Assembly: GCA_963818525.1 (NCBI GenBank)
Contig: CAWFSO010000004.1
Location: 49,624-113,623 of the forward strand
Reading direction: 5' to 3'
DNA length: 64,000 nucleotides
Source: an uncultured Rikenellaceae bacterium
GTDB taxonomy: Bacteria > Bacteroidota > Bacteroidia > Bacteroidales > VadinHA17
Shown here: piece by piece, positions 22,566-62,960 of the stretch
How the letters are laid out: every line of letters begins with the position of its first letter
Numbering within the stretch: position 1 is the first letter of the stretch
Made by a program: the position numbers and the translations under genes
The notes under the pieces: generated by a model
Databases searched by the model: none
The model's input: only the letters and a program-made list of their open reading frames with translations
What the model was told of the DNA's origin: nothing

Positions 22566-24524
22566 CTAGATCTCCTTCTTTAATATGATGACCTCTGCCT
22601 GTTTGCGAATGATTTCAGAATAGAATTTCCTGATTGAGGCGTACCTATCGGGAAGGTAGGTGACGGTGGAGAAGCTGATCTCCGACTCAAGCGTGACCTT
22701 TCGGCCGTCAGCGCTGATGTTGTAGATGAACCCGGCTCCTCCCCCATCCATTCGCAAATTTACCGACTGAGGAAGTTCTGCTACGGTCCATCCCTCGGGA
22801 ATGGTTATGGTGCATCTGTATTTCTCCGTTGAGGGGCATGTCAGGTCAATCACCGAAATACGCTCTTCGGCGTAAAATTCATTCGATTCCTTGCGGCCAT
22901 ACAGGACAGGATTCAGGTACATGAAACCGTCGCCATTGTCTGTGGCCCCCGGGATGGCAAGGCTGATCCTCTCAATGACCGGTTCCTCCGGCTTTTCGAG
23001 GTTTTCAAGCTCAAGACCTGAAATTTTCCAGTCTGAATAGACTGACTGCATAAAATCGCGGTAAGCCTCGGTTCCCTGGAGGGAACAGGTCTTCCTCACC
23101 ATCCATGCGTAATAGCTCTCATAGACGTTGGTTGCCTTTCCGGTCAGGCCGCCCTTTTCATCCAGCTCCATTTCGAGGGAGACTGTTTCGCCGTAATGCT
23201 CACCATTGTTCAGGTCTACCCATGACCCTCCCAGTTCGTCAACCAGCCATCCCTGTCCGTTGAGGCACTCCTCCGGCAGCATGTTGAACGGCCTCAGAGG
23301 GTCGGTAGCGTCGATGACATATACTTTCCCCTCTGCCGTTGCTGCAACAGCCACATGATTGAACTTCCTGATGATCGCGAAGAAGGGGTTAACCAGGCCA
23401 TGTTCGCGCGTACTGAGTATCAGCGGATCCGCCTGTAACCCGGCCATCCTGAGCATTGCCAGGAGCATCAGGTTAATGTCTGCCGCATTACCCCGCGCGT
23501 CCTCATAAATTTTTGACATTGAGGCGGAAGCGGTGAAGTCGGAGTAACCGTTCCACATCATATAATCGGAAACCCAGGTAAAGATGCGTCTGAGAATATC
23601 TGTTTCAGATCCTCCCATTGACTTAAGCTCATCTGCCTTTTTCCTGACCACTGCAGCCTTATCAATGTAACCTCCGAAATCTGTCCGGGCCAGCAGCTTC
23701 TCCGAAAGTCTGGGGTAGGTAGGCGAGACCTCCTCGAAGTAGTAACCGGGGATATTGATCTTTGAGAGTTCGAACCCGATCCTCGCGTAAAAGTCCTCCG
23801 AGCCGGTGCTGAACGGCTCCTCACGGTAAGCCGGTATGTTGTTTCCTCTCCATGTCCCAGAGAATCCTTCAACACTGCTGTCTCCGAACAGAACCCTTCG
23901 CTGCCCGCTGTTGTACCTGATGCCGAAGAGATTTCCGCCGGGCACGAATTTGTACTCGAAATAGCCGGGGAACTCGACCTGGAAATTGCATCTCCTGACG
24001 GGGATGTCATGCTGGAACTCCAGGGTATAGAGGGTAAAGTAGTCAGGGCTCTCCAGGGTGTACCTGTATTCAATCACCGTGCCGGGCCTGACATTTGGGA
24101 CCGAGAAACGCAGTGTGCTCGTGTAACGGCTCGTATTTTCATAATAGAGACTCTTTTTGTCGACCAGGCTCTGCACGGTAACCCCATCTTCCAGGTTATA
24201 GGCCGCAGCCCTCATCCCTATGATCTTCTCATCACTGCCATAGGGCAGCTCGACATTGGCGTAATCGAGCCCGTCGGTATTGATGATCTTGATCCTCACA
24301 TGGCAATCGGTAACGACGGTGATCTTCTCGGCGGATCGCATACTTACCATGGCATGGTTTTCCAGGATCACGGCATCAGCCGACGGATCGGGTTCATACA
24401 CTGCCATTTCAAGATCCTCCTTCGGGATCTCGCCGAAGGTGATCTCTTTGATCTGGCCGGCTAGTGATGTGCTGAAGGCCAGGGAGACCAGGCTCAAGGT
24501 TATCAGTCGAAAAGAATTGTGCAT
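22566..24524 (-). CDS. DUF3857 / transglutaminase-like protein (catalytic Cys apparently replaced)
   Basis: 652 aa with a signal peptide. The equivalent core reads ARGNAADINLMLLAMLRMAGL...FNHVAVA, with Ala in place of Cys. It lies 5 nt from the downstream paralog. Confidence 0.7.
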   Translation of the reverse strand: MHNSFRLITLSLVSLAFSTSLAGQIKEITFGEIPKEDLEMAVYEPDPSADAVILENHAMVSMRSAEKITVVTDCHVRIKIINTDGLDYANVELPYGSDEKIIGMRAAAYNLEDGVTVQSLVDKKSLYYENTSRYTSTLRFSVPNVRPGTVIEYRYTLESPDYFTLYTLEFQHDIPVRRCNFQVEFPGYFEYKFVPGGNLFGIRYNSGQRRVLFGDSSVEGFSGTWRGNNIPAYREEPFSTGSEDFYARIGFELSKINIPGYYFEEVSPTYPRLSEKLLARTDFGGYIDKAAVVRKKADELKSMGGSETDILRRIFTWVSDYMMWNGYSDFTASASMSKIYEDARGNAADINLMLLAMLRMAGLQADPLILSTREHGLVNPFFAIIRKFNHVAVAATAEGKVYVIDATDPLRPFNMLPEECLNGQGWLVDELGGSWVDLNNGEHYGETVSLEMELDEKGGLTGKATNVYESYYAWMVRKTCSLQGTEAYRDFMQSVYSDWKISGLELENLEKPEEPVIERISLAIPGATDNGDGFMYLNPVLYGRKESNEFYAEERISVIDLTCPSTEKYRCTITIPEGWTVAELPQSVNLRMDGGGAGFIYNISADGRKVTLESEISFSTVTYLPDRYASIRKFYSEIIRKQAEVIILKKEI

Positions 24525-24609
24525 CGCTTTGATAAGGTTAACAGTCGAAAAAGATTATGCATCGCTTTGATAAGGTTAACAGTCGAAAAAGATTATGCAT
24601 CGCTTTGAT
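24504..24609. repeat. 38-bp tandem repeat (about 2.8 copies) that duplicates the start codon and first codons of the 22566..24524 gene
   Basis: The copies are at 24504-24541, 24542-24579 and 24580-24609. Copies B and C both read cagtcgaaaaagattatgcatcgctttgat; the full 38-bp unit continues aaggttaa, whereas copy C diverges after tttgat. Copy A differs at a few positions and holds the annotated ATG (24524). Confidence 0.9.
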
Positions 24610-31925: not shown

Positions 31926-31940
31926 ATCCCTTACTGCTGG

Positions 31941-32125
31941 TTCTTAAGGTGGGCGAGGCTCAGCTGTTTTGTCATCTCAGGCTTAGCTCAATCGGTCTTC
32001 AGGCCGGGCGTGGCTATATAATTTCATCTGGTGAGCCGGCGGGTTCTGTTATTTCAGAAGTGGCGCGGCTCAGCTGTTATTCAGGCCTGACGTGGCTATG
32101 TTATTTCTTCAGGTGGGCGAGGCTC
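31941..32125. repeat. Degenerate ~26-30-bp tandem repeats derived from, and running into, the 3' end of valS
   Basis: The valS terminal sequence ttcttcaggtgggcgaggctc (32104-) recurs as ttcttaaggtgggcgaggctcagctgtt (31941-) and ttcagaagtggcgcggctcagctgtt (32052-). These copies are interleaved with ttcaggccgggcgtggctat (31998-) and tcaggcctgacgtggctat (32080-). Confidence 0.75.
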
Positions 32126-34728
32126 TCCCTAAGCGTCGCTATCTTAGACCGTGCATCCGCCTCCTTCTTCCTCTCAAGCGTCAGGACCTTCTCCGGCGCA
32201 TTGGCGACGAACTTTTCGTTCGAGAGCTTCTGCATTACCGATGCGAGGAACCCCTCCGTGTAGGCCAGCTCCTCCTCCAGCTTCCTGATCTCATCCTCAT
32301 GGTCGATCCCGGCTGTCAGCGGCACGAAGAATTCAGAGGTGTGTATCCTGAATGAGGCCGCACCTTCAACTTTGCCTTCCACAATGCGTATCTCCGAGAG
32401 GTTGCACAGCCTGGTGATGACCTGGTCAAACTCCGTCCCGGTGGTGCCGGCGACGGCACAAAGTACCAGCGGCTCACGTACCGGAATATTTCTCTCCTTG
32501 CGTATTGCGCGCACTGCGGTAACTATCTCCTTCGCCGTCTCAAAGCGTGTCAGCATACCTGCCTCATAGGGTGCGGGAAGGGGCATCTGCTCAACCATGA
32601 TGCTCTCCCCCTCTTTCCTTTCACCCAGCCTCTGCCATATCTCCTCGGTGATAAAAGGCATGAACGGATGGATGATCTTCATCAGCGTCTCAAAGATCTC
32701 AAGTGTCTGTTTGTGAGTCTTGCCATCCATCGGCTCTTTGTAAGCTGGCTTAATAATCTCCAGGAACCATCCCGAGAAGTCATCCCAGAAGAGCTTGTAG
32801 GCCTGCATCAGCGCGTCGGAGATGCGGTAACGCACAAAGCTGTCATCGATATCCGCCAGCGTCTTGCTGATGGTGTCCTGCATCCAGTGCACCGCAGCCT
32901 TTGATGCCTCAGGCTGCTCAAGGGTCTCATCGGTGGGCATGGTTATCACGAGACGGAACGCGTTCCAGATCTTGTTGGCGAAGTTGCGGCCCTGCTCCGG
33001 CAGGCTGTCATCGTAAAGAAGATCATTGCCTGCAGGCGAACAGAGAAGCATGCCTACCCTCACGCCGTCAGCCCCGTACTTCTCCATGAGAGTGATTGGG
33101 TCAGGCGAGTTGCCGAGCGATTTCGACATCTTGCGCTTCTGCTTGTCACGCACGAGGCCGGTGAGGTATACATCATGGAATGGCTCCCTCCCGCGGTACT
33201 CATACCCTGCAATTATCATCCTGGCAACCCAGAAGAAGAGTATCTCCGGGGCGGTGACAAGGACATTCGATGGATAGTAATATTTTATGTCAGCATTGTC
33301 GGGGTCATTGATGCCGTTGAAGCATGTGATTGGCCAGAGCCATGATGAGAACCATGTGTCAAGGACATCTTCATCCTGCCTCAGGTCTTTCAGGGTAAGG
33401 TCCTGCCTGCCGCTGGCCTTGCGTGCCATGTCGAGAGCCTCCTCTTCGCTTTCGGCAACCACGAATTCATTGTTACTGTAATAATATGCCGGGATGCGCT
33501 GACCCCACCACAGCTGCCTGCTGATGCACCAGTCGCGGACATTCTCCATCCAGTGCCTGTAGACATTCCTGTACTTGTCGGGATAGAGACTCACGGTGTC
33601 ATCCATGACCGCCTCAAGGGCAGGCCTGGATAAATCCTTCATGCTCAGGAACCACTGCAGCGACAGCTTGGGTTCAATCACTGCATGGGTACGTTCCGAG
33701 CGCCCTACCTTATTTATATAATCCTCAACCCTGACGAGGGCTCCGGTTTTGCGGAGCTCCTCCTCCGCAAGCTTCCGGGCTTCGAACCGGTCAGTGCCGA
33801 CGAACAGTCCGGCCCTCTCGCTGATGGTTCCGTTATCATTGAAGATATCAATGGCTTCGAGGTTATACTTCACCCCTATCTCATAGTCGTTGATGTCATG
33901 CGCGGGAGTGATCTTCAGGCATCCCGTACCGAACTCCTTGTCGACATACTCGTCGAAGATGAATGGGACCTCACGCCCCGTCATCGGGACGATGACATGT
34001 TTTCCCTTCAGGCCGGCATAGCGCTCATCAGTCGGATTGGCGCAGACGGCCGTGTCGCCGAGGATGGTCTCAGGCCTGGTGGTGGCCACCATTACATAAT
34101 TATCCTCGCCCACTATTTTATAGCGCACGTAATAGAGCTTCGACTGCTCCTCGGTGTATATAACCTCCTCATCCGAGACGGCGGTCAGAGCCTGCGGATC
34201 CCAGTTGACCATGCGCACGCCTCTGTATATAAGGCCCTTTTTATACAGGTCGATGAAAACCCTGATCACTGATTTATACCGGTCGTCATCCATGGTGAAG
34301 AGGGTGCGGTCCCAGTCGCACGATGCCCCCAGGCGCTTGAGCTGCTCGAGGATGATGCCTCCGTGCTTGTGCGTCCACTCCCATGCATGGTCAATGAATT
34401 CCTCCCTCGATATTGACTTCTTGTCAATGCCTTCGCTGCGCAGCTTGGCAACAACCTTGGCCTCGGTGGCGATGCTTGCATGATCGGTGCCCGGCACCCA
34501 GCAGGCATTGAAACCCAGCATGCGTGCACGCCTGACAAGCACATCCTGGGTGGTGTTGTTCAGCATGTGACCCATGTGCAGCACCCCCGTCACATTTGGC
34601 GGCGGGATGATAATGGTATAAGGCGTTCTGCCGTCAGGGACACTGCGGAAAAAACCCTTATCCATCCAGTATTTGTACCATTTGTTCTCCGCGGCGGCGG
34701 GCTCATATTTTGAAGGAAGACCGGTCAT
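32101..34728 (-). CDS. valS: Valine--tRNA ligase
   Basis: 875 aa. It has the HIGH-type motif [18 protein letters not shown], an editing domain and a C-terminal coiled coil. Confidence 0.95.
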
Positions 34729-41612: not shown

Positions 41613-41667
41613 AGACGGCTATGGAGGTAAGAAACGAGATGTCACAAATTCCGGAGGCTAACCATAG

Positions 41668-43059
41668 ATGGCAATGACAGAAGATTTTTTTCAGGGTTAC
41701 AAGGGCGAAGCGCTGGCAGTGCTCAAAAAGTACAACGTCAGGGTATGGGGCCAGGCTGATATCGAGACTACGCGCGGCCTCTTCAAGGGTACCGTCCTGC
41801 CCAGGGCGGAGAACAATGACGACCTCCACATAGTAATTAAGATTGAGAGCGGGTACAATGTAGGCATTGACATAACCACCGTCATCAGGATGACGGAGAC
41901 AGGCTATAAGAAAGCCAACTACCAGATCCCTGAAAAAGCATTCCCCTACTCCGATGACAAGCCCACGGTGAAGCTCCTGGGCACCGGCGGCACCATCGCC
42001 TCGAGGCTCGACTACCGCACCGGTGCCGTGATACCTGCTTTTTCGCCGGGCGAGCTCTACGGCGCTGTGCCCGAGCTGGCCGACGTGTGTAACATTCACA
42101 CCGAGAAGCTCTTTGGTGTCTTCAGTGAGAATATGGGTCCTGATCAGTATATGACCCTCGCCAGAGCAATCGGAAAGGAGATAGAGGGCGGTATTGACGG
42201 CATTGTTATCGGCCATGGCACAGACACGCTGCACCATACCGCCGCCGCACTCTCATTCATGATACAGAAGCCCCCGGTGCCGATCATTCTGGTGGGTTCA
42301 CAGCGTTCATCCGACAGGCCTTCGTCAGATGCCGCACTTAACCTGATACACGCTGCAACGGCGGCAGGTCACGGTGACATCGCCGAGGTGATGGTCTGCA
42401 TGTTCGGCCCCACGAGCGATGAGTACGGCTTCCTGCACCGCGGCACAAGGGTGCGCAAGATGCACAGCTCGTACAGATCGACCTTCAGGACCATAGGCGA
42501 CATACCCATAGCTACCGTCAGGCGCGGAGAGGTGAAGCCCATGAAGCCGCATTACAACCCGCGCCGCAATGACCGCAATGTCACAATCATGCCCTACTTC
42601 AACGAGAATGTGACGATGATCTATTTTTATCCCCACATGAAGGTCGAAATGTTCCATTCGCTCATCGACATGGGGTACAAGGGCATAATTATAGTTGGGA
42701 CGGGACTGGGACATGTGAACAGGGAGCTCTATCCGGCCATTGAGCGCGCGCAGAAGGAGAATGTGGCGGTATATATGACGCTTCAGACTATCTGGGGATA
42801 TGTGCATATGTTCGTCTACGAGACCGGCCGCGACATGATGGCGAAAGGTGTCATCCCGCTCGGGAACATGTTGCCGGAGGTGGCCTGGGCGAAGCTGGGA
42901 TGGGCGCTGGGGCAGACCGATGACCTCGGGGAGGTCAGGAAGATCATGTTAACCCCGGTGGTTGATGAGATCACAGAGCGCGAGCCCTATAACGGCTACC
43001 TGGTATACCAGGGCGGCGTGCCGGAGGTGGAGGAATTCATTCGCCGGGTCCACAAATAA
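41668..43059 (+). CDS. gatD: Glutamyl-tRNA(Gln) amidotransferase subunit D, archaeal type (asparaginase-like)
   Basis: 463 aa. The N-terminal domain contains LHIVIKIESGYNVGIDI. The asparaginase core contains LLGTGGTIASRLDYRTGAV, VIGHGTDTLHHTA and VGSQRSSDRPSSDA. Confidence 0.85.
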   Translation: MAMTEDFFQGYKGEALAVLKKYNVRVWGQADIETTRGLFKGTVLPRAENNDDLHIVIKIESGYNVGIDITTVIRMTETGYKKANYQIPEKAFPYSDDKPTVKLLGTGGTIASRLDYRTGAVIPAFSPGELYGAVPELADVCNIHTEKLFGVFSENMGPDQYMTLARAIGKEIEGGIDGIVIGHGTDTLHHTAAALSFMIQKPPVPIILVGSQRSSDRPSSDAALNLIHAATAAGHGDIAEVMVCMFGPTSDEYGFLHRGTRVRKMHSSYRSTFRTIGDIPIATVRRGEVKPMKPHYNPRRNDRNVTIMPYFNENVTMIYFYPHMKVEMFHSLIDMGYKGIIIVGTGLGHVNRELYPAIERAQKENVAVYMTLQTIWGYVHMFVYETGRDMMAKGVIPLGNMLPEVAWAKLGWALGQTDDLGEVRKIMLTPVVDEITEREPYNGYLVYQGGVPEVEEFIRRVHK

Positions 43060-43100: not shown

Positions 43101-43175
43101 GATTTGCGATTTGCGATTTGCGATTTGCGAATTTTGATTAAATCGACAATCGAAAATCCGAAATCGAAAATTCCT
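43101..43175. repeat. Heptamer array with inverted halves between the convergent genes gatD and mltF
   Basis: (GATTTGC)x4 is followed by gaattttgattaaa and then tcgacaa tcgaaaa tccgaaa tcgaaaa. The second half approximates the reverse complement of the first, so an imperfect long hairpin is possible. Confidence 0.85.
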
Positions 43176-50599: not shown

Positions 50600-51987
50600 G
50601 CGTCGCGTCCTTTTAGCATCTCTGTTATAGGATCAATGAAACGGTCGATGTCACCGGCACCTATCGTAAGAAGGAGGCCTTTATTCACTTCCGCGAGGGC
50701 TGGCAGCAGCTCCTCCCTGGTAACAACCCGTACGTTCCTGTTCTTCATCAGTCCGGCTATCATATCAGAGGAAACACCCGGTATGGGTTTCTCCCTGGCG
50801 GGATAGAGAGTCAGGAGCAGCACTCCGTCAAGCCTGTCGAGGGCCTCTGCGAATCCTTCGGCAAAGTCGCGTGTCCTGGTGTAAAGATGCGGCTGGAAGA
50901 TGCCAATGACCTGCCTCCCGGGCCAGAAGTCGCGCACAGCGCTGACAAGTGCGTTGATCTCCGCCGGATGGTGTGCATAGTCGTCGACATATGTTATCTC
51001 CTTGCCCGAATACCTCACGTCGAACCTGCGTCGGACGCCCAGGTACGTATCGAAAGCCTCGCGGATGTCGTCAGGACCGACACCGGCGCACCATGCCGCT
51101 GCCGCTGCCGCGGTGGCATTAAGTATGTTGATCATGCCGGGTAACGGCAGCCTTATATCTTTAACCGGATCACCCGGGGTGGTCAGTTCAAACCTGTAGC
51201 ATCCCTCCTCCTTCGCTATGCCGACAGCCCTGAACGAAGCCTTCTCTCCCGTACCGTAGGTGTAGATGGTGGCGTCATCCGGCAGAGAGAGCGAGGAGAT
51301 TATTTTTTCATTGATAATCAGCCTGCCGCCGTTCCTCACACGGTGACAGAACTGGCCGTAGGCTTCCACCATCGCTTCCGCAGTGCCGTAGATATCAAGA
51401 TGATCGGGGTCAATGGCTGTCACCACCGAGATAAGCGGCGAGAGGTGCAGGAACGAACGGTCGAACTCGTCGGCCTCCATAACTGTGTACCGGCTCTGTG
51501 CCAGGAGCAGGTTGGTGTCGTAGTTCTTCGCGATGCCTCCAAGGAAGGCGGAGCATTTTACCGGTGCCGTTGTGAGGATATGGGCGATCATGGTGCTGAC
51601 GGTCGTCTTGCCGTGTGTCCCGGCGACGGCAATGGCGTCAGTGTCACGCGAGATCATTCCAAGTATCTCAGCCCTCTTGTAGATGATGTACCCGTTGTCC
51701 CTGAAGTAATTAAGCAGTTTGCTCTCCTTTGGTATGGCAGGAGTATAGACGATCAGAACCTTGTTGCTCTCCCGGGGATCAGAAAAAAGCGTTGGCAGGG
51801 TATCAACGTTGTCATCGTAGGCGATGCTGCATCCCTCTTCCTCCAGTCGTTCCGTCAGGGCAGTTGAGGTGCGGTCATAGCCACAAACGACATATCCATC
51901 TGACAGGAAGTAGCGTGCGAGAGCGCTCATCCCTATCCCTCCTATGCCAAGGAAATACATCCCTTCTATGTTCGTCAGTCCCTTCAT
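50596..51987 (-). CDS. murC: UDP-N-acetylmuramate--L-alanine ligase
   Basis: 463 aa with GIGGIGMSALA and AVAGTHGKTTVSTM motifs, in dcw context. Confidence 0.93.
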   Translation of the reverse strand: MKGLTNIEGMYFLGIGGIGMSALARYFLSDGYVVCGYDRTSTALTERLEEEGCSIAYDDNVDTLPTLFSDPRESNKVLIVYTPAIPKESKLLNYFRDNGYIIYKRAEILGMISRDTDAIAVAGTHGKTTVSTMIAHILTTAPVKCSAFLGGIAKNYDTNLLLAQSRYTVMEADEFDRSFLHLSPLISVVTAIDPDHLDIYGTAEAMVEAYGQFCHRVRNGGRLIINEKIISSLSLPDDATIYTYGTGEKASFRAVGIAKEEGCYRFELTTPGDPVKDIRLPLPGMINILNATAAAAAAWCAGVGPDDIREAFDTYLGVRRRFDVRYSGKEITYVDDYAHHPAEINALVSAVRDFWPGRQVIGIFQPHLYTRTRDFAEGFAEALDRLDGVLLLTLYPAREKPIPGVSSDMIAGLMKNRNVRVVTREELLPALAEVNKGLLLTIGAGDIDRFIDPITEMLKGRDA

Positions 51988-52125
51988 TGCTTCACCAGCT
52001 ATACTTCTCAGTCAGTTTTCTAATTTATTAACCAGCTATAATATTTCGTAAGGCCTTTCATCTCTTACCCTTTTATATGTTCTATCAGGCCCCTCATCTC
52101 TTCACCAGCTTTAATACTTCGCGGG
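51981..52125. repeat. murG/murC spacer built from degenerate copies of the murG 3' end / murC start junction
   Basis: The sequence ccctcatctcttcaccagctttaatacttcgc (murG 3' end, 52091-) recurs as ccttcattgcttcaccagctatacttctc (the murC start region, 51981-). Fragments ttaaccagctataatatttcg and ctttcatctcttaccc lie in between. Confidence 0.7.
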
Positions 52126-53210
52126 CAATTACCTCGTCAGAATTTTTTATTGCCAGTCTCCTTATGTTGTCAGAAAGTTGATTTCGCTTTGCGTCGTCAT
52201 GCACCAGTGTCAGGGCCGTATTGATGAGCGCTGTCTGTGCATCGGAGTCTCTTACCAGTATGGCGGCGCCACGGTTGACGAGGGCCATGGCATTGTGCGT
52301 CTGGTGGTCCTCAGCCACGTTGGGTGACGGCACGAGGATGACCGGCTTGCCGACCAGTGCCAGCTCGGAGATGGTACCGGCGCCGGCACGGGAGATGATG
52401 ACATCGGCGGCGGCATAGGCCAGGTCCATACGGTTTATGAAGCCTGTGACAACAGTGTTGGTCACAGCCTTCTCTTCAGCCAGCTCGCGCATCCGGTCAT
52501 AATAGTGACTGCCGGTCTGCCATATCATCTGCACACCGGATGCCTCCACCTGGCCTATGCCGCCACCGACACTGTTGTTGACCGTGCCGGCGCCGAGCGA
52601 CCCGCCCAGAACAAGTATCACCGGCATGCCTGGCTTCAGCCTGAAGTGCTCCATCGCCTCCGCCCTGAGCGCATCCAGGTTGTCATAGGCCTGCCTGACA
52701 GGATTGCCCGTCAGTATTATTTTTTCCTTCGGGAAATATTTTTCCATCCCCTCATAGGCCACGCATATCTTTTCCGCCTTCTTCGCCAGCAGCCTGTTGG
52801 TCACACCGGCATAGCTGTTCTGCTCCTGTATCAGGGTGGGTATGCGCTTCCGCTGCGCCTGCTTCAGCACCGGGCCTGAGACATATCCACCGACGCCCAC
52901 AACAACATCAGGACCGAACCTCCTGATTATCTGTGCCGACTTCATTATGCTGCGGAAGAGCTTCCATGCCACATGGAATGTTTTTGACACTGACACCGCG
53001 TACCAGTCCTGCCACCGACAGCCCCTCTATCTCGTAGCCGGCCTCGGGCACCTTCTGCATCTCCATCTTCCCGATGGCGCCGACAAACAGGATTTTCACC
53101 GCCGGCTCAATGCGCCGCAGGGCGTTGGCAATGGCAATGGCCGGGAAGAGATGCCCGCCGGTGCCGCCTCCGCTGATGATGATCCTTATATCTTTACCCT
53201 CCGCGCTCAT
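52094..53210 (-). pseudogene. murG: UDP-N-acetylglucosamine--LPS/undecaprenyl transferase MurG, interrupted by a 1-nt frameshift as assembled
   Basis: The N-terminal ORF (53210..52908) carries [17 protein letters not shown]. The C-terminal ORF (52996..52094) carries [16 protein letters not shown]...GGSLGA...SRAGAGTISE. The frames switch at an A5 run (T5 on the plus strand, 52981-52985). Confidence 0.85.
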
Positions 53211-53363
53211 GTTAATCTTGTATCTTTCTCTCGCTGCTTATGCTAATCCTTGTGTCTTTCTGTCGCCGTTAATGCTGATACTCCTGTCTTTTCCTTCACC
53301 GCTCATTCTTTTCCTTGTATACTGTCCCGCGCCCCTCATGCCGGTATCTTGTCTGTCTGTTCA
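53203..53363. repeat. ftsW/murG spacer made of five degenerate ~30-36-bp tandem copies of the ftsW-stop/murG-start junction
   Basis: Units start at 53203, 53233, 53265, 53301 and 53329. They read cgcgctcatgttaatcttgtatctttctct / cgctgcttatgctaatccttgtgtctttctgt / cgccgttaatgctgatactcctgtcttttcc... / cgctcattcttttccttgtatactgtcc / cgcgcccctcatgccggtatcttgtctgtctgt. Confidence 0.8.
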
Positions 53364-54526
53364 ATCTCGGAAAGCTTCTCCTGCCGCTCACGCATGTTCA
53401 TCACCCTCGAAACACTCAGTATCGCCCCCAGCGAGAAGCTGATGACCATCACAGAGGTACGGCCCCAGCTGATCATCGGCAGCGTCTGGCCCGTGACCGG
53501 GAAAAGCCCCACGGCCACAAGCATGTTGAGAAATGCCTGGAATACGATCATGACGGTAAGTCCCAGCACCATCAGGGCCGGGAACGCATAATCGCATTTT
53601 CGCGCTATCTGTATCCCCCGGAACATCAGTGCCAGGTAACTGAGTATTACTATTATTGCGCCGAACAGCCCGTACTCCTCGACGATTATCGCGAAGATGA
53701 AGTCGGAGTTCGACTGCGGCAGCATGTTGCGCTGCGTGCTGCCTCCCGGCAGCTTGCCGAACAGCTTGCCCGTCGAGATGGCTATCTTGGCCTGGTTCGA
53801 CTGGTAGTCGGCATCGGGTGAGCTCTCTCCGCTGAAGAAGGTCTCGATGCGGTTCTTCCAGACCTGAACCCTGTTGTCATCCTTCTTAAAGACCAGCAGC
53901 AGAGCCGCAAACAGCACCACGGCTGCCAGTCCCATCCCTGCATAAGCCAGCAGGAATTTTATCGGAACACGGCCGATAAACAGTATTATCATGCTGATCA
54001 TGAAGATCATGACCGAAGTGGAGAGGTTCTCTGACATGATCAGCCCGCATACAATGGCCACAGGAAGAACCAGCTTCATAGTCACGGTGCGGAAGTTGTT
54101 CAGCTCATTCTGGTATATGGTCAGCCCCCTGGCAAGGTATAACACCAGCGCAACCTTCGCAATATCAGATGTTTGCAACCTCAGGCCAATGACGGGTATC
54201 TCGAGCCACCGTGTGGCCTCGTTGATGCTCACACCGGCAACAAGGGTAATGCCCAGCAGCACGATCGACGCCCCCAGCCCGATGGCGGCGAACTGCATGT
54301 ATTTAATATAAGGTATCCAGTGAGTGACAACAATGATCAGCAACCCGAGCATCAGCATGATGAACTGGGTGCGCAGAAAATAGAATGTGTTTCCGTGATG
54401 CGACGCGTAGGCCACGCTCACCGACGAGCTGTAGACCGACAGCAGCGAGATGAACATGAAGAGCGCGATGATACCCCACAGATACCTGTCGCCCCTGAAA
54501 AACCTTTTTACCGTCACCTGCGCCAT
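53336..54526 (-). CDS. ftsW: SEDS-family peptidoglycan glycosyltransferase FtsW
   Basis: 396 aa and polytopic. Family-like blocks are GATRWLEIP-like (EATRWLEIPVIGLRLQTSDIAK), SDFIFAIIVEEYG and PVTGQTLPMISWGRTS. Confidence 0.9.
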   Translation of the reverse strand: MAQVTVKRFFRGDRYLWGIIALFMFISLLSVYSSSVSVAYASHHGNTFYFLRTQFIMLMLGLLIIVVTHWIPYIKYMQFAAIGLGASIVLLGITLVAGVSINEATRWLEIPVIGLRLQTSDIAKVALVLYLARGLTIYQNELNNFRTVTMKLVLPVAIVCGLIMSENLSTSVMIFMISMIILFIGRVPIKFLLAYAGMGLAAVVLFAALLLVFKKDDNRVQVWKNRIETFFSGESSPDADYQSNQAKIAISTGKLFGKLPGGSTQRNMLPQSNSDFIFAIIVEEYGLFGAIIVILSYLALMFRGIQIARKCDYAFPALMVLGLTVMIVFQAFLNMLVAVGLFPVTGQTLPMISWGRTSVMVISFSLGAILSVSRVMNMRERQEKLSEIEQTDKIPA

Positions 54527-54620
54527 CGTTCTCTTTTACCTGCTGATTCTTAAATGTTTGTTACTTTCCTACAGCCGTCTGCTGTCACTTGCTCCACAGT
54601 TTAATCTTACTTTCCGATTC

Positions 54621-55958
54621 CTACAGGTTTCTTACTGCCATCTTGAACTGGCGTCCGCGATCTTCATAGTTATTGAACAGGTCGAAGCTGGCGCATGCCG
54701 GCGAGAGCAGCACGGTGTCTCCCTTGTGCGCCAGGTAGTAGGCTGATTTCACAGCCTCCTCCATCGAGGTAGTCTCTACAATGGTCGGCACCATGTCGCC
54801 GAATGCGCTGATGATCTTCGAGTTATCCTTACCCAGGCAGACAATGGCCTTCACCTTCTCCTTCACCACGGTGTTCAGCTCGGTGTAGTCATTCCCCTTG
54901 TCGATGCCCCCTGCTATCCATACCACCTCGCTCTTCATGCACTCAAGTGCGTACCAGGTGGAGTTGACGTTGGTCGCCTTCGAGTCGTTTATAAAGTTTA
55001 TTCCTGCCACCATGATGACCGACTCAAGCCTGTGCTCCACACCCTGGAAGTCTGTCAGGCTTTCGCGGATGGTCTCCTTGCGTATGTTGAGAACCTTGCC
55101 GGCAATGGCTGCAGCCATCGAATTGTAGGTATTGTGGCGTCCTTTCAACGCCAGGTCGTGAATGGTCATAAGGCTGGTTTTTTGGGTTATTTGAAGGATA
55201 AGGTTGTCGTTTTCAACACAGGCTGCCATTCCCTGGCATCTGTCAATGGAGAAGGGGTGTGAATGCGATGCGATGACACGCTTTGCCACCTCGCCGGCGG
55301 TCACCGGGTCGTCGGCGCACCAGATGAAGTGGTCGGCTGCCGTCTGGTTGCGTATCACCCTCATCTTGGAGTCGACATAGTTCTGCATCTCGTGATCATA
55401 CCGGTCGAGGTGATCAGGAGTGATATTCATCAGGATGGCTATCTCGGCCTTGAAGTCGAACATGCCGTCGAGCTGGAAGCTGCTCAGCTCGATGACATAG
55501 TAATCATATCCGCCTTCGGCCACCGCCAGGGCGAAGCTGTTGCCCACATTGCCGGTCATCGCCACGTTCAGGCCGGCCTTCTTCATCATGTGGTATATCA
55601 TATTGGTGGTGGTGGTCTTGCCGTTGCTTCCCGTCACACATATCTTGAAGGCATCAGTGTAGCGGCCGGCAAACTCTATCTCGGAGATGACGGGGATCTT
55701 CTTTTCGCGTATGGCTGTCACCAGGGGGTTATCCTCGCGGAGGCCCGGACTCTTGATCACCTCATCGGCATTCATGATCAGCTCAGGTGTGTGCTTCCCC
55801 TCCTCAAAGGCGATGTTGTGCGAGACGAGTATCTCGCGGTACTTATCCTTAATGGCGCCGCTGTCGGTCACGAAGACATCAAAGCCCTGCTTCCGTGCCA
55901 GCACCGCCGACCCTGCACCGCTCTCTCCCGCGCCCAGTATTACAATTCGTTTCATCAT
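54621..55958 (-). CDS. murD: UDP-N-acetylmuramoylalanine--D-glutamate ligase
   Basis: 445 aa with GAGESGAGSAVLA and VTGSNGKTTTTNM motifs, in dcw context. Confidence 0.93.
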   Translation of the reverse strand: MMKRIVILGAGESGAGSAVLARKQGFDVFVTDSGAIKDKYREILVSHNIAFEEGKHTPELIMNADEVIKSPGLREDNPLVTAIREKKIPVISEIEFAGRYTDAFKICVTGSNGKTTTTNMIYHMMKKAGLNVAMTGNVGNSFALAVAEGGYDYYVIELSSFQLDGMFDFKAEIAILMNITPDHLDRYDHEMQNYVDSKMRVIRNQTAADHFIWCADDPVTAGEVAKRVIASHSHPFSIDRCQGMAACVENDNLILQITQKTSLMTIHDLALKGRHNTYNSMAAAIAGKVLNIRKETIRESLTDFQGVEHRLESVIMVAGINFINDSKATNVNSTWYALECMKSEVVWIAGGIDKGNDYTELNTVVKEKVKAIVCLGKDNSKIISAFGDMVPTIVETTSMEEAVKSAYYLAHKGDTVLLSPACASFDLFNNYEDRGRQFKMAVRNL

Positions 55959-55961
55959 TCT

Positions 55962-57361
55962 CTATCGTATCTTCAGTGTCACCACGCTCAGCACCGCCAG
56001 TAATATGGCGACGATCCAGAATCGTGTGACTATCTTGGGTTCAGCATATCCTAGCTTCTGATAATGGTGGTGCAGCGGCGCCATGAGGAAGATGCGCCTG
56101 CCCTCGCCGTATTTGCGCTTCGTTCTCTTGAACCAGCTCACCTGTATCATGACCGACAGGCTCTCAATGAAGAAGACTCCGCACAGGATGGGTATCAGAA
56201 GCTCTTTCCTTATCACTATGGCGAAGACGGCGATGATCCCGCCGAGGGTGAGGCTGCCGGTGTCGCCCATGAAGACCTGCGCCGGGTAGGAGTTATACCA
56301 GAGGAAGCCCACCGTGGCACCGGCAAAGGCGGCGGCAAAGATCACCAGCTCGCCAATGTTAGGTAAATACATTATTTGCAGGTAGTTAGCAAAGATGACG
56401 TTACCCGAGACATATGCAAGTATGCCAAGAGTGACCCCTGCGACAGCACTTGTTCCTGTTGCCAGCCCGTCAAGGCCGTCGGTGAGGTTGACGCCGTTGG
56501 AGACGGCCACCACCACGAAGATCACCATCGCCATGAAAACCAGCCATCCGAGCAGCTGCTTCGTCTTCCCCTTGGCAAACGGAACCAGCCATGAGTAGTC
56601 GAACTCGTTATTCTTGACAAAGGGGATGGTGGTCTTGGTAGACTTGATGTTGACTGCCGTTGACTGTGGAATGATTTCTCCCGGCTGCCCTGCTGCCATA
56701 TTCCTGACACATCCGCTGATGTATCCGTTGACATCATCGAGGACATGTTCGCCGACGCCTCCATTGAGGTATCCGTAGACATGCTCTGCGAAACATTTCC
56801 CGTAAAACCCGCTGACACATCTGCATACATATCCGTCGACATATCCGCTGAAGCCACCGTAACACCTGCGGGAGCGCTGACATTGACCCTGACAACCACA
56901 TCATCACTGATATAAAGTGTCAGGGCCACGATAAGACCCAGGCCGACCTGGCCCATGATCTTGAAACGGCCGGCAAGGCCCTCCTTGTTCTTTTTGAATA
57001 TCTTGATGTAATCGTCCATGAATCCGATGAGGCCAACCCAGACAGTGGTGATGATCATAAGGATGATATAGACGTTGTCAAGCCTCGCGAAGAGAAGAAC
57101 GGGAACAAGGATGGATGCAATGATTATGATGCCACCCATCGATGGGGTGCCCTGTTTCCTGTACTGACCCTCGAGGTCGAGATTGCGTATTGTCTCTCCT
57201 ATCTGCCTGCGCTGCAGGTAGTATATCAGCCTTTTCCCGATCAGCACTGCGATTATGAGGGAGGTGATGACAGCAGCAGCAGACCTGAACGAGAGATAAT
57301 TGAATACTCCTGCTCCGGGAACGCCAAGTTCATCGAGGTATCTGAAGAGATAATACAACAT
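55962..57361 (-). pseudogene. mraY: Phospho-N-acetylmuramoyl-pentapeptide transferase MraY, with a repetitive loop insertion and a frameshift as assembled
   Basis: The N-terminal ORF (57361..56522) carries [11 protein letters not shown] and [17 protein letters not shown]. The C-terminal ORF (56699..55962) carries [40 protein letters not shown] and APLHHHY. The two are in different frames across an S/T/D/M-rich repeat segment. Confidence 0.85.
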
Positions 57362-57362
57362 A

Positions 57363-58820
57363 TCAACTTATATTAAATGCTTTACGTAACTCCTCCCTGT
57401 CATCGAAGTGGTGCCTGACACCCTTCACCTCCTGGTATGTCTCATGACCTTTGCCCGCGACGATTATTATGTCACCCGGCGTGGCCAGCATCACGGCAGC
57501 CCTGATGGCATCAGCGCGACCGGTTATGCGTATCATCTTCGGCATGGCGTCAGGGGTTAGTCCCGCTTCCATGTCGTCAATGATTTTGTCAGGATCCTCG
57601 CTGCGGGGATTGTCTGATGTCAGGATAAGCCTGTCGGCTCCGGCCGAGGCGATGCGCGCCATGACGGGCCTCTTGGTGCGGTCACGGTCGCCGCCGGCGC
57701 CCACAACCACTATCAGCCTGCCTGCTCCCTGCCTCAGCCTGTTAACTGCTTCGATCACATTCTCGACGGCGTCGGGTGTATGTGCATAGTCTACGATGCC
57801 GGTGATGCCGTCTGCCGAGCGTATCACCTCCATGCGGCCGTCAACGGGACGGAGCTTGCTGAGTATAGTCAGAACCTCTTCGCTCTGCGCGCCAAGAAGG
57901 ATTGCCGAACCGTATACCGCAAGAAGGTTTGATGCGTTGTAGTCGCCAATGAAGTGAGTCCACACCTCTGTGCCGTTGATTTTGAGCAGCATCCCCTCAA
58001 ATCCCTGCTCGATGATGTTGCACCGGAAGTCGGCCATTTTGCGCATTGAGAAAGTGTGCTTTGCCGCCCTGGTGTTCTGTGTCATCACCATGCCGTTCCG
58101 GTCGTCTGTGTTGACCAGGACAAAAGCTTCTTTCGGGAGGTCGTCGAAGAACTTCTTCTTTGCGGCGAGATAATTGTCAAAGGTCAGGTGGTAGTCGAGA
58201 TGATCATGGGTCAGGTTGGTGAAAACACCTCCCGCGAACTGCAGTCCGGCAATACGTTTCTGGTCAACGGCATGCGAGCTCACCTCCATGAATGCATATT
58301 CGCATCCTGCATCGACCATTTCCGCCAGGAGGGCATTCAGTTTGGCGGGGTCGGGAGTGGTATGCGTTGCATCCCTGCGCTCGAGATGCACATAGTTGCA
58401 GACCGTCGAGAGCAGTCCGCACTTGTATCCCAGCGCCTCGAACATATTATAAAGTAATGTTGCGATGGTGGTCTTGCCGTTGGTGCCCGTGACTCCCGTC
58501 AGCCTTAGCTTTCTTGAAGGGTGATCGTAGAATGCCGAGGCTGCCATTCCTGTTGCCGCTGCCGAGTCGTCGACTACTATCATGGTGACTCCTTCGAAGA
58601 GTTTTTCGGGAAGCGCTTCGCAGATGACTGCTGTTGCCCCTGACTCAACTGCTTTGCCGATGAAGGCGTGACCGTCGCTCTTCGTTCCCCTGACAGCTAC
58701 AAAGAGGCTGCCCGGCTTTACGTCACGGGAGTCGGCTGTTACACCGGTGATGAGCTTGTCTTCATCGCCGTAGATGGACGTCACCCTCAGTTCCTTCAGT
58801 ATATTCTTAAGCTCCTTCAT
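57363..58820 (-). CDS. murE: UDP-N-acetylmuramoyl-L-alanyl-D-glutamate--2,6-diaminopimelate ligase
   Basis: 485-486 aa with [14 protein letters not shown] and the DNPRSEDP motif. I prefer the ATG at 58820 over the GTG at 58823 used in the ORF track. Confidence 0.92.
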
Positions 58821-59001
58821 CACTTTTTCTCAGGTCAGACACTGATCACACTCTGTTTTTTCTTGCTTTATTCATCACTTTTTCTCAGGTCAAAGACTTT
58901 GCACAAACAGTTTCTTCCTTGCTTTATTCATCACTCTTATCATGCTGCCTTGTGCCTCCATTGCTTTTTTCATCTCCTCTTTCATGCTCCCCGGTTCTCC
59001 A
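58816..59001. repeat. ftsI/murE spacer: 55-56-bp tandem repeat (2+ copies) of the murE start region, followed by shorter degenerate ATG-containing pieces
   Basis: U1 (58816-58870) reads ttcatcactttttctcaggtcagacactgatcacactctgttttttcttgctttat. U2 (58871-58926) reads ttcatcactttttctcaggtcaaagactttgcacaaacagtttcttccttgcttta. U3 begins ttcatcactcttatcatgc at 58927. Confidence 0.85.
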
Positions 59002-61035: not shown

Positions 61036-61403
61036 TGACTGGAGTTCTTTTCTGGCTGGGTGGTTGGATTGGGGTACTGTTGATTGCTGGCTGGCTCTGA
61101 ATTTGTGTTTGCGGTGGCTGACTAGTGTGTGTTATACTGATCTGATGGTGTGGCTGCTTTGGGTTACTTATGACTGTTTTTGTGACTGTTGACTGGTTGG
61201 TGATCAATATTGGGCTGTTTGATTCTTGTGATTGCTGGATCTCTTTAACTGGGTAATTGCGGTGGTTTTATTTATTTCTGCTGTACTATTCTTACTGTAA
61301 GGTAACTTTGGGTTTGTTGCGTATTACTGTTCTGATCTGACTGTCTGATTACTTTGACTTACTCTTGTATTCTTGTCCAATTCTTCCTGCTTGGTTGCAT
61401 GAT
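61036..61403. repeat. 368-bp strand-skewed spacer (GT-rich on plus, AC-rich on the transcribed minus strand) between ftsL and ftsI, with a recurring TGACTG/CAGTCA motif
   Basis: The plus strand is dominated by T and G. TGACTG-like words recur (ttgactggag, ggctgactag, tatgactg, gtgactgttgactgg, atctgactgtctga). No ORF of 60 aa or more lies on the minus strand in this interval. Confidence 0.8.
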
Positions 61404-62054
61404 TTACTTGTTCACTACTATCCTGTAAGGCGGCTCGCGAAGTTCCTCGAGACCCAGTCCCCTCTCCTTAACCAGATCCGTTATCTCACTCTGGCGGCTC
61501 ACGCTGCCCAACTCTGCCGAGACCGAGAGCGCCTCCGCCCGCATATCCCTCACCTCCTGTTCAAGGACTATAATCTCGCGCTCAACACGCTCAGCATTGA
61601 ACTTATTGGCAATGAAGATGATAGCTAGCACGGCAATAAGAGCCGAGTATTTCATGTCCTTGAGAATCAGACTCTCGGAGATCAGTGTCCCGCTTATCAG
61701 CCCCTTGAATATACCCCCCTGGCTCTTTTTGCCTGAGGATTTCGGTCTGGAGGCCTGCCCTGCTCCTGACTGCCCTTCCGCTGACTGACCATCAGTTGAC
61801 TGACTGCCGACTGCTGTCCCGACACTGCGTGTTCGGGATTGATTCTCCTCCTTCGTCGGAGCATCAAACTGCCGACTGCTGACTGAGGACGGAGCATCAA
61901 ACTGCCGACCGCCGACTGCCGTCCCGACACTGCGTGTCCGGGATTGAGTCTCCTCCTTCGTCGGAGCCTCAAACTGCCTGCCTCCGGCTGAATTTTGCAG
62001 CTGTTTGATCAACTGACGGGCACTCCATCCCTCTGTGTTCCTCTCCTCTTCCAT
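61404..62054 (-). CDS. ftsL: FtsL-like cell division protein with a repetitive N-terminal extension
   Basis: 216 aa. The C-terminal half has a TM helix (YSALIAVLAIIFIANKF) plus a coiled coil (EREIIVLEQEVRDMRAEALSVSAEL), and the gene sits between rsmH and ftsI. The N-terminal ~120 aa contain GRQF(E/D)APTKEE.QSRTRSVGTAVG repeats. Confidence 0.75.
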   Translation of the reverse strand: MEEERNTEGWSARQLIKQLQNSAGGRQFEAPTKEETQSRTRSVGTAVGGRQFDAPSSVSSRQFDAPTKEENQSRTRSVGTAVGSQSTDGQSAEGQSGAGQASRPKSSGKKSQGGIFKGLISGTLISESLILKDMKYSALIAVLAIIFIANKFNAERVEREIIVLEQEVRDMRAEALSVSAELGSVSRQSEITDLVKERGLGLEELREPPYRIVVNK

Positions 62055-62059
62055 CCTCT

Positions 62060-62960
62060 TCAGATTTTCTCCGCTATCCTTAACCTTGCACTGCGTGCCC
62101 TTCTGTTTTCTGAAATCTCCTCCGGCGTTGGAACGATCACCTTGCGGTTCACAGCCTTGAACGGAGTTGACAAGTTCCCGTAGAAATCCTTGTCGCTCTC
62201 ACCCTCGAAATTGCCGGTGCGGATGAAATTCTTCACCAGCCTGTCCTCAAGCGAGTGGTATGTTATCACTGCCAGCCGGCCTCCGGGCTTCAGTACCTGA
62301 AGGGCCTGCGAGAGCATCTCCGTGAGAGCATCCAGCTCATGGTTCACCTCAATGCGTAACGACTGAAACAGCCGTGCATAAAACTTATTCTCCTCCCATG
62401 ACGGGACCAGTCCCGCAAGCGCCGACATGAGGTCACTGACGGTATTTATCGGTTTGCTTAACGCGTGCTTTGACTATGGCCGCTGCCAGCTTCCGTGAGT
62501 TGGTCAGTTCGCCGTACTTGTAAAAAACATCTGCCAGCTTCTCTTCCTCGTAAGTGCGGAGGATGTCCGATGCCCTGAGGGTCGACTGGCGGTTCATGCG
62601 CATGTCGAGTTCCGCATCGCTGCGGAAGGAGAAGCCCCTCTCCTGCTCATCGAACTGATGAAACGAGACGCCGAGATCAGCTATCAGTCCGTCGATTTCG
62701 GTTATCCCGAGGTAGCGAAGGTTGTTCTTCAGGTACCGGAAGTTCTGGTTGAGGAGGGTGAACCGTGCGTCGCTGATGCTGTTCGCTTCGGCATCGGCAT
62801 CCTGGTCAAAAGCAATGAGCCTGCCTGAGGTGAGCTGGTCGAGGATGGCGCGCGAGTGTCCTCCGCCTCCGAAGGTTACGTCGACATAAATCCCGTCGGG
62901 CCTGAGGTTTAGCCCTGCAATGCTCTCTGTCAGCAGTGCCGGGAGGTGATAAATGACCAT
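62060..62960 (-). pseudogene. rsmH: 16S rRNA (cytosine1402-N4)-methyltransferase RsmH, frameshifted as assembled
   Basis: The N-terminal ORF (62960..62433) carries VDVTFGGGGHS and DLGVSFHQFD. The C-terminal ORF (62428..62060) carries FQSLRIEVNHEL and GRLAVITYHSLEDR. The second frame read upstream gives KPINTVSDLMSALAG, which continues the family alignment. Confidence 0.85.

Follow-up and report, generated by a model that had tools for sequence, protein, structure and literature searches.

The 125-bp spacer between ftsW and murG in the division and cell wall (dcw) gene cluster of an uncultured Rikenellaceae bacterium is, with very high probability, a decayed minisatellite. It would have arisen by tandem duplication of the stop/start junction of the two genes, have been tolerated, and then have decayed, by a process that recurs in the clade to which the bacterium belongs. 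The DNA analysed, hereafter the window, is a stretch of 64,000 nucleotides that corresponds to positions 49,624 to 113,623 of the forward strand of contig CAWFSO010000004.1 (GenBank assembly GCA_963818525.1); all coordinates below are positions in this window. An earlier note, made from the letters of the window, had proposed that the gap is built of junction-like tandem units, and this proposal holds: a repeat-finding program reports a tandem array, the array resolves into five units, and shuffled sequences never perform as well.

The tandem array between ftsW and murG

Open reading frames (ORFs) and Pfam matches on the minus strand of the window give the gene order mraZ, rsmH, ftsL, ftsI, murE, mraY, murD, ftsW, murG, murC, ftsQ, ftsA, ftsZ, which is the Bacteroidetes order of the dcw cluster. 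The gap between ftsW and murG extends over 53211..53335. In the following list of features, the array is that reported by Tandem Repeats Finder (TRF), and the units U1 to U5 are compared with the compact ftsW-murG junction of relatives, ATGAGCGGCGAGGGTAAAGATATAAGGATCATC, which serves as the reference for matching them.

53336..54526, minus strand: ftsW, 396 aa, from the ORF list; Pfam FTSW_RODA_SPOVE, E = 3e-67; stop codon TGA at 53338-53336.
52094..53210, minus strand: murG, start codon ATG at 53210; Pfam Glyco_transf_28 N and C domains; read as two ORFs here because of a single-base indel near 52990.
53182..53341, no strand assigned: tandem array; TRF period 32, 4.9 copies, 70% matches, score 95.
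53336..53339, minus strand: ATGA tetranucleotide, the ftsW stop together with the fossil of the ancestral overlapping murG start; murG of relatives begins at exactly this ATGA.
53307-53339, minus strand: U5, 33 nt, ATGAGGGGCGCGGGACAGTATACAAGGAAAAGA (begins ATGAGGGG); outer copy holding the ftsW stop; 22/33 positions match the compact junction, a value that 0/2000 shuffles reach.
53274-53306, minus strand: U4, 33 nt, ATGAGCGGTGAAGGAAAAGACAGGAGTATCAGC (begins ATGAGCGG); pseudo-start; 25/33 positions match the compact junction.
53242-53273, minus strand: U3, 32 nt, ATTAACGGCGACAGAAAGACACAAGGATTAGC (begins ATTAACGG); start codon decayed to ATT; 23 positions matched; an orthologous unit is present in the relative L002.
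53211-53241, minus strand: U2, 31 nt, ATAAGCAGCGAGAGAAAGATACAAGATTAAC (begins ATAAGCAG); start codon decayed to ATA; 23 positions matched.
53178-53210, minus strand: U1, 33 nt, ATGAGCGCGGAGGGTAAAGATATAAGGATCATC (begins ATGAGCGCGG); functional murG start; 31/33 positions match the compact junction.

The tandem-repeat search suggested in the earlier note thus returns a 32-bp array of 4.9 copies. Its score of 95 (89 when the search is made on the minus strand) is reached by none of 1000 dinucleotide-preserving shuffles of the array region, the maximum of which is 60, and by none of 1000 shuffles of the purine-rich core alone (maximum 67). Read on the coding strand, the array consists of five units of 31-33 nt, all of which open with AT(G/T/A)A. 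The units also stand well above shuffled sequence in their resemblance to the compact junction, as the earlier note had expected: all five match it at 22-31 of 33 positions, which is equalled by 0/2000 shuffles, and U2-U5 alone match it at 22-25 of 33 positions, again with 0/2000 shuffles as good. When the whole spacer is compared with the 5' end of murG, the similarity has a z-score of 4.3, and the score is reached by 1 of 200 shuffles.

The array region is 74% purine on the coding strand, and the assembly contains indel errors, both of which would favour chance similarity within a low-complexity, purine-rich stretch, or an assembly artefact, as the source of the pattern. However, this explanation is effectively refuted. 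The score of the array is beyond all dinucleotide-preserving shuffles; independent assemblies, among them short-read ones as judged by their SPAdes- or MEGAHIT-style contig names, contain homologous arrays with whole-unit differences; and the copies of the array are about 70% identical to each other, which is not what an assembly duplication produces.

The borders and the state of decay differ in part from those given in the earlier note. The array itself is confirmed, but it reaches about 25 nt further into murG, to 53178/53182, and on the ftsW side it ends at 53339/53341 and not deeper in the coding tail of ftsW. In particular, the ftsW tail at 53340-53372, considered as a sixth half-unit, was dropped since it matches no better than shuffled sequence (P = 0.54). 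The copies are degenerate, as had been claimed, but there is no monotonic gradient of decay along the array.

Both outer copies are intact: the ftsW TGA lies in U5, and the murG ATG, with 11 conserved residues after it, lies in U1. Among the inner copies, U4 still encodes MSGEGKD, the MurG N-terminus of compact relatives (MSGEGKDIRI), and the functional murG copy of the window has changed to MSAEGKD. The A-rich context directly 5' of the true murG ATG (A at -3, -6, and -13) comes from U2. Note that the frameshift in murG lies about 215 nt downstream of the junction and is unrelated to the array; murG is intact, with 371 aa, in relatives.

The junction in relatives

Relatives were collected by a protein scan with FtsW, retaining one genome per species, which gave 80 loci with FtsW identities of 98-64%. 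All of them are genome bins of uncultured Bacteroidales or with a Rikenellaceae label, and their sources are sediments, soils, fens, and biofilms. For each locus, the junction was scored by locating the ftsW stop and a conserved MurG anchor. The comparison covered about 21 kb per relative, so that what is said here at the scale of whole genomes is extended from the dcw cluster, the 64-kb window, and one non-dcw junction in three relatives.

In 23 of the 42 scorable closer relatives, murG starts at an ATGA that overlaps the ftsW stop (examples are ...ccggcATGAgcggcgagggtaaagatATAAGGATC and ...ccggcATGAgcggcgagggtaaagatATAAGGATCATC), and the junction is compact in all 35 scored members of a more distant clade. 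The ancestral compact state is observed directly, because relatives show the ATGA overlap: the ancestral state of the ftsW-murG junction is a classic -4 ATGA overlap that survives in relatives. The earlier note had deduced such an overlap from the window.

The note had also suggested that an alignment of orthologous junctions would reveal copy-number variation, and it does, in register and by whole units. The ftsW-murG junction has 3 units in L001 (98% FtsW identity), 5 in the window, and 7 in L002 (96%). In the alignment, L001 equals the window minus two units, and the missing stretch runs exactly from the ATGAG of U4 to the ATAAG of U2; two units more than in the window are present in L002, and these lie near the 5' end. 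Whole-unit differences of this kind look like the signature of unequal recombination or slippage between units.

The distribution of compact and expanded states was placed on a neighbor-joining tree of concatenated FtsW, MurD, MurC, and MurE, which is a quick distance tree of four proteins. On this tree the fully compact genomes lie in basal clades, and expansions are derived and concentrated in one clade that includes the window. From ftsL>ftsI through ftsQ>ftsA (we write upstream>downstream gene for a junction), the gaps in basal compact genomes are -8, 2, 1, 3, 3, -4, -4, -4, and 17 nt. The maximum gaps in the derived clade are 407 nt for ftsL>ftsI, 261 for ftsI>murE, 282 for mraY>murD, 239 for murD>ftsW, 189 for ftsW>murG, 162 for murG>murC, and 164 for ftsQ>ftsA; a murC>ftsQ gap of 301 nt is found in L033 only.

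On the tree, ftsW>murG is expanded in the clade of the window, L001, and L002 (the sisters L003 and L005 are compact), in L004 and L006, in L010 (4 x 33 nt; the sisters L011, L012, and L016 are compact), in L033 (the sister L041 is compact), and in a clade of eight genomes. In a separate clade, L036-L040, it is the sole expanded junction. The unit length by lineage is 32-33 nt in that of the window and 33 nt in L010. On this comparison, the junction has expanded independently in several lineages, and the unit length is not the same in all of them. Some compact states may be reversals, since precise collapse to one copy is possible; reversals or not, the locus turns over fast relative to protein divergence.

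Other expanded junctions

The earlier note stated that several other junctions of the window show the same pattern, which is borne out by a comparison with coding sequence: internal direct repeats with z > 5 are present in 6 of the 12 same-strand window spacers of at least 35 nt vs 2 of 90 coding control segments (Fisher p = 1.7e-5), and one of these two segments is a known in-frame repeat. Spacers with such repeats are listed here with their z-scores, together with a convergent one.

51988..52093, minus strand: murG>murC spacer, 106 bp, in which the murG 3' end, ATGA, and the murC 5' end recur in decayed form; z = 11.1.
54527..54620, minus strand: murD>ftsW spacer, 94 bp, decayed internal direct repeats; z = 6.5.
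58816..58935, minus strand: array of 2.2 copies of 55 bp, copies of the murE start (GTGATGAA...), inside the 178-bp ftsI>murE spacer; z = 12.5.
24496..24609, minus strand: array of three copies of 38 bp, 94% identity, each copy covering -9 to +29 around the start codon of a DUF3857 gene (22566..24524); z = 28.
41613..41667, plus strand: 55-bp spacer that repeats in tandem, in decayed form, the final ~50 nt of the GatE-like gene upstream, with its stop; z = 10.6.
31926..32100, minus strand: convergent spacer, several decayed copies of the 3' end of valS (32101..34728); z = 11.8.

The murG>murC junction offers the most legible stages. It is an ATGA overlap in the relatives L003, L005, and L014, and its compact form reads ...aaaagATGAGGGGACTGAC... 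Single fresh duplications, in which the murC 5' end and then the murG 3' end can be read, occur in L022 (68 bp), L007 (70 bp), and L012/L010 (98 bp). For example, the 98-bp copy of L012/L010 consists, after the murG stop, of the first ~63 nt of murC (MKELTNIE...GIAMS) and the last ~35 nt of murG, followed by the real murC start. A 112-nt murG>murC gap in L001 was set aside as an assembly frameshift artefact; that junction is really a compact ATGA overlap.

For the other dcw junctions of the list, the gap in relatives is -1 to 3 nt at ftsI>murE and 3-4 nt at murD>ftsW. The 38-bp array belongs to the TIG>DUF3857 junction, outside the dcw cluster. At this junction, three metagenome relatives with 79-81% protein identity carry a single copy, and their spacer measures about 25-30 nt; the three-copy array is a recent event. 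The ftsL>ftsI spacer of the window (61036-61403, 368 bp) contains no significant internal repeat (z = 1.3). This junction is an 8-nt overlap in compact relatives; TRF arrays of 37-45 bp are found there in L002, L004, and L007, and the spacer is A/C-rich across relatives (A 44%, C 26%, T 12.5%).

Among relatives, TRF arrays are present in 29 of 91 expanded spacers vs 7 of 242 control segments from compact genomes (p = 2e-12). When spacers are compared with 50 nt of the gene ends that flank them, 20 of the 91 expanded ones show significant similarity, vs 0 of 27 ancestral ftsA>ftsZ spacers; since this test uses strict scoring (+2/-3), the former figure is a lower bound, and visible or TRF cases such as the ftsI>murE spacer of the window are missed. 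Roughly one-fifth to one-third of the expanded spacers of relatives thus retain detectable gene-end similarity or a TRF array.

Inside genes of the window, the periods of the TRF arrays (45 and 33) are divisible by 3, vs 32, 38, and 55 for the junction arrays, which is the expected residue of purifying selection on a general duplication process. The in-gene repeats lie at 60-334, in a gene at 15-1070 on the plus strand; they are in frame, comprise 45 bp x4.1 (80-90% identity) and 33 bp x2, and fall at the N-terminal end of an S4/pseudouridine-synthase protein.

Some proteins encoded in the cluster also vary in length. MraY has 418 aa in all compact-junction genomes vs 426-492 aa in many expansion-prone ones (loci L001, L002, L004, L009, L012, and L016). 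The extra segment of the window mraY (56522-57361 / 55962-56699) is a low-complexity, S/T/D/M-rich one with repeated MSTD..ADVS motifs. The longer MraY suggests a general tendency to insert or duplicate, and resembles an in-frame counterpart of the junction expansions. The window FtsL (61404-62054) carries a long N-terminal extension, with a repeated motif of ~24 aa, GGRQFEAPTKEE(T/N)QSRTRSVGTAV, in front of the FtsL_2 domain. Among relatives, 1248-2064 nt separate the start of rsmH from that of ftsI, a distance made up of rsmH, ftsL, and the ftsL>ftsI spacer. Measured from an N-terminal anchor to the stop, MurE has 535 aa in L011, L012, and L016 vs 485 elsewhere, which is either an insertion or an artefact of the anchor.

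How the spacer would have arisen

The course of events that we propose for ftsW-murG is as follows. A segment of about 33 bp, extending from the ancestral ATGA stop/start overlap to about 29 nt into murG, would have been duplicated in tandem. Such a duplication would be tolerated because the segment spans the gene boundary, which keeps both genes intact: ftsW still has its end in the outermost 5' copy, murG still has its start in the outermost 3' copy, and the inner copies would be free to decay. Because every unit brings a start codon with it, the last copy would always be in frame. Inside a gene, such an event would be lethal, because the unit length is not a multiple of 3. Later slippage or unequal recombination between copies would have added and removed whole units, leading to the 3, 5, and 7 units of the nearest relatives.

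At the window's ftsW-murG junction, this would have replaced the ATGA termination-reinitiation arrangement. In the operon transcript, murG would now lie behind a purine-rich, unstructured leader of 125 nt and would have to be initiated on its own, so that translational coupling is presumably lost at the expanded junction. The same process would have opened many other tight junctions in the clade and would be the source of new intergenic DNA there. We infer that the molecular mechanism is slippage or unequal crossing-over, and the resulting spacers appear to be largely neutral. The case is not one of a new molecular machine, but of a well-supported evolutionary process that makes intergenic DNA.

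Content of the spacer

Several other kinds of element that might occupy an intergenic spacer were considered and rejected. A structured cis-regulatory RNA (riboswitch, leader, or small RNA) was one of these: a search of 51800-54800 gives no Rfam match with E <= 1, and the fold of the spacer is weaker than that of shuffles, the 165 nt over the array having a minimum free energy of -12.9 kcal/mol (z = +1.23), with 182 of 200 shuffles folding at least as well. Another was an internal promoter or intrinsic terminator, since no sigma-70-like promoter or terminator is present on the coding (minus) strand inside the ftsW-murG spacer. Promoters of Bacteroidetes carry the consensus motif TAnnTTTG. This motif, for which PMC6847099 gives the same consensus, is absent from the coding strand of the spacer, where the longest T run is 2. 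The third was a dispersed family of repeats such as mycobacterial interspersed repetitive units (MIRUs), repetitive extragenic palindromes, or miniature inverted-repeat transposable elements (MITEs). Patterns made from the ftsW-murG unit match only within 53178-53262 of the 64-kb window, the other junction arrays of the window have unrelated units, and the unit forms no stable stem-loop.

The spacer also contains a reading frame that begins at the ancestral overlap.

53238..53339, minus strand: fossil frame, 33 codons long; opened by the ATG that overlaps the ftsW stop and closed by a TAA of U2 (53240-53238).

This frame ends 27 nt before the murG ATG and is the same frame as that of murG (offset 129 nt). 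A frame of this type could act as a relay, in which short frames leading from the ATGA to near the murG start hand ribosomes on and preserve the coupling, much as has been suggested for the small ORFs of MIRUs. The start of the 33-codon frame at the ATGA agrees with such a relay, and its counterpart in L001, L013, L035, and L036 has its end no more than 4 nt from the murG ATG. Moreover, an ATGA start combined with a period of 3n+2 would mean that the frame of each unit originally ended on the TGA of the next unit, as can be deduced from the sequence. However, the frame stops those 27 nt short of the murG ATG in the window and 17-151 nt short of it in 8 other expanded relatives with an overlapping start codon, L004 and L037 have lost the overlapping start entirely, and termination-reinitiation coupling is reported to need overlaps or very short distances (PMC10666635). 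The peptides of the frame differ between the window, L001, and L002, its closest relatives, and end elsewhere; a conserved spacer peptide or upstream-ORF relay was rejected on this ground. We regard a relay as improbable.

Alternatively, the spacer could itself be coding and add to MurG, from the ATGA on, an N-terminal extension made of repeats; the TAA and the units of 31 and 32 nt would then be assembly errors. The ATG at 53339 and that of murG share a frame (129 nt = 43 codons) that is broken by one TAA only, the window has other single-base indels, and in L009, L010, and L040 the units run uninterrupted and in frame from the ATGA overlap, as extensions of 14, 44, and 16 codons, respectively. 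MurG of these three relatives may indeed bear an extension of this kind. For the window, on the other hand, the frame is interrupted by the TAA at 53240-53238, and U3 and U2 lack an ATG and differ from the other units by substitutions, not by indels alone. In L001 and L002 the extra lengths are 65 and 193 nt, neither of which is a multiple of 3, and stops occur within 13-20 codons; over the 19 expanded junctions (18 relatives and the window), the extra length is divisible by 3 in 7, which is about the chance level. A coding spacer is thus even harder to credit than a relay. No single coding or relay arrangement is conserved among relatives.

Neutral decay or selection

On the coding strand, the expanded spacers of all junctions contain A 42%, G 28%, C 16%, and T 14%, compared with A 30% and T 19% over the 60 nt of gene end next to them and A 32% and T 30% in the ancestral ftsA>ftsZ spacer. 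A convergence of this kind might be read as the trace of selection. In this explanation, a form of "natural refactoring", duplications are kept because they free the downstream start from upstream coding constraints; in the Bacteroidia, which initiate without Shine-Dalgarno pairing, the start region can then become an A-rich, unstructured leader, by which murG translation is set independently of ftsW.

Several observations agree with this. The A-rich, T-poor composition is reached at many junctions, and the spacer RNA is less structured than its shuffles. The murG ATG of the window has A at -3, -6, and -13 vs G at -3 in the compact junction. In Flavobacterium johnsoniae, which belongs to the Bacteroidia and makes no use of Shine-Dalgarno pairing, A at -3, -6, -12, and -13 and a low degree of secondary structure favour initiation (PMC6847099). 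The pseudo-ATGs closest to the real start are gone, both in L002 and in the window, where those nearest murG (in U3 and U2) are now ATT and ATA. The same junctions expand repeatedly, and two others, murE>mraY and mraZ>rsmH, do so in none of the genomes examined. By analogy with Flavobacterium, the spacer of an opened junction has plausibly been moulded into an independent initiation region. Nevertheless, many healthy relatives keep compact junctions, which argues that decoupling is not required; the purine richness is partly inherited from the murG 5' end or possibly due to low-complexity slippage; and neither the lengths nor the sequences of the spacers are conserved. We therefore consider it rather unlikely that selection for decoupling is what maintains the duplications.

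Our preferred explanation, that tandem junction duplications are tolerated and then decay, must itself be weighed against the following points. The A-rich convergence across junctions and lineages makes strict neutrality questionable, although a purely mutational source, slippage of purine-rich low-complexity motifs, is possible. In the distal parts of the spacers, ATG is found 164 times vs 129 +/- 11 expected; in the 30 nt beside the real start there is no excess (30 observed vs 36 expected). The ATG counts come from related, non-independent genomes and offer modest support only. The two junctions that never expand have a 1-nt gap (murE>mraY) and a 1-nt overlap (mraZ>rsmH) in every closer relative examined, and they stay tight even where five or six other dcw junctions have expanded, a constancy that may reflect constraint, e.g., obligatory coupling. 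Taken together, the A/T convergence, the ATG distribution, and the two never-expanding junctions suggest that selection acts on the persistence and fate of spacers. Furthermore, there is no clear microhomology at the ends of the freshest array (38 bp x3), and the duplication mechanism is a presumed one; the junction origin of most expanded spacers of relatives, which are too decayed to be recognised, is an extrapolation; and, given the single-base indels in murG, mraY, and rsmH of the window, the unit lengths of 31, 32, and 33 nt may hold assembly errors.

Assembly quality and unrelated features of the window

The genes murG (~52990), mraY (56522-56699), and rsmH (62428-62433) of the window are split by single-base indels or a stop codon and are intact in relatives; murG of L001 is also truncated by a single-base indel. 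The indels of the window are probably long-read assembly errors, the alternative being real pseudogenisation.

Elsewhere in the window, Pfam domains identify a GatE/GatD-like pair on the plus strand: a protein of 663 aa with the GatB/GatE catalytic domain (39621-41612) and one of 463 aa with asparaginase and GatD_N domains (41668-43059). This is an archaeal-type Glu-tRNA(Gln) amidotransferase, here in a Bacteroidales bin. Runs of 7-bp repeats (ATTTGCG / GATTTGC and the complement), with up to about 20 copies, are present at 34732-34876, 38092-38142, and 43101-43171; they lie in three divergent or convergent spacers and are unrelated to the junction arrays.

Implications

Discussions of intergenic DNA in bacteria usually turn on deletion bias, mobile elements, and pseudogene remnants, and gene overlaps are thought to arise and vanish by point mutation of start and stop codons. 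The conserved, essential operon described here shows another route, with intermediate stages preserved: a junction is duplicated, each gene acquires a private end, and a spacer is formed from coding sequence. At a duplicated junction the classic ATGA overlap, which is associated with translational coupling, is lost. Since one clade holds compact genomes, single fresh duplications, and multi-copy decayed arrays at the same junctions, the rates, mechanisms, and fitness effects of uncoupling become measurable in a Shine-Dalgarno-blind phylum. There is also a practical consequence for annotation, in that the pseudo-start codons and short spurious ORFs of the arrays can mislead gene callers on the starts of murG and similar genes.

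The earlier note attributed the pattern to a lineage-specific process. Its concentration in one clade of the tree agrees with this, as a pattern. Tentatively, a clade of uncultured Bacteroidales may be systematically "un-compacting" its operons, a lineage-specific cause turning tight junctions into A-rich leaders of 30-400 nt; we see this as possible, with the balance tilting against it. Candidates for the cause are an alteration of replication or repair by which 30-100-bp tandem duplication becomes more frequent, and selection tied to Shine-Dalgarno-independent initiation. If this were true, it would be a general, undescribed route from coding sequence to intergenic DNA and to independent translation-initiation regions, for which genomes at every stage exist, from 94%-identical copies to fully decayed ones.

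In the literature searched, the coverage of which is incomplete, no earlier account was found of bacterial spacers that arise by duplication of a junction; the process is probably undescribed, as far as it appears, which is less than a proof of novelty.

Comparison with known systems

In animal mitochondrial genomes, tandem duplication followed by decay or random loss has been invoked to explain intergenic spacers. The likeness to the present case is that a spacer is born from duplicated adjacent coding sequence, one functional copy being kept and the redundant ones decaying. The differences are that we deal here with a bacterial chromosome and with segments of 30-100 bp centred on a stop/start junction instead of whole genes, that gene order is unchanged, and that there are multi-copy arrays and recurrence at many operon junctions.

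Phase-variable contingency repeats have units of 1-7 nt near start codons, and their number switches the reading frame or the promoter spacing. They share with the junction arrays a position at the 5' end of a gene and copy-number change by slippage, but the units here are degenerate and 31-55 nt long.

In the refactoring of phage T7, sequence shared by overlapping genes was reportedly duplicated to separate the genes. As in the junctions described here, each gene thereby gets a private copy of its end. That work was a deliberate laboratory design in a phage, whereas the event here is spontaneous, recurrent, and multi-copy, and occurs in a natural bacterial operon.

The ATGA overlaps of -4 nt with termination-reinitiation coupling, as treated in PMC10666635, correspond to the ancestral state, which has been dissolved in the window. 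The literature searched on overlaps describes their gain and loss through mutated start or stop codons (e.g., PMC3887535) and does not discuss duplication of the junction; in the text of one recent overlap survey, the words "duplication", "tandem", and "insertion" are all absent.

MIRUs that form variable number tandem repeats are, according to PMC3184786 (which summarises Supply et al. 1997), tandem units of 40-100 bp that lie between the genes of operons, within polycistronic mRNA. The same source describes a strain-variable copy number and small ORFs whose ends overlap the stop and start codons of the flanking genes, and treats MIRUs as one dispersed family, with about 40-50 copies per genome, that possibly is MITE-like and has inverted repeats. 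The present arrays differ in that the unit of each junction stems from its own gene ends, and the ftsW-murG unit is unique in the 64-kb window and lacks a stem-loop. In being intra-operon tandem units of variable copy number, however, MIRUs are the nearest described objects to the ftsW-murG array.

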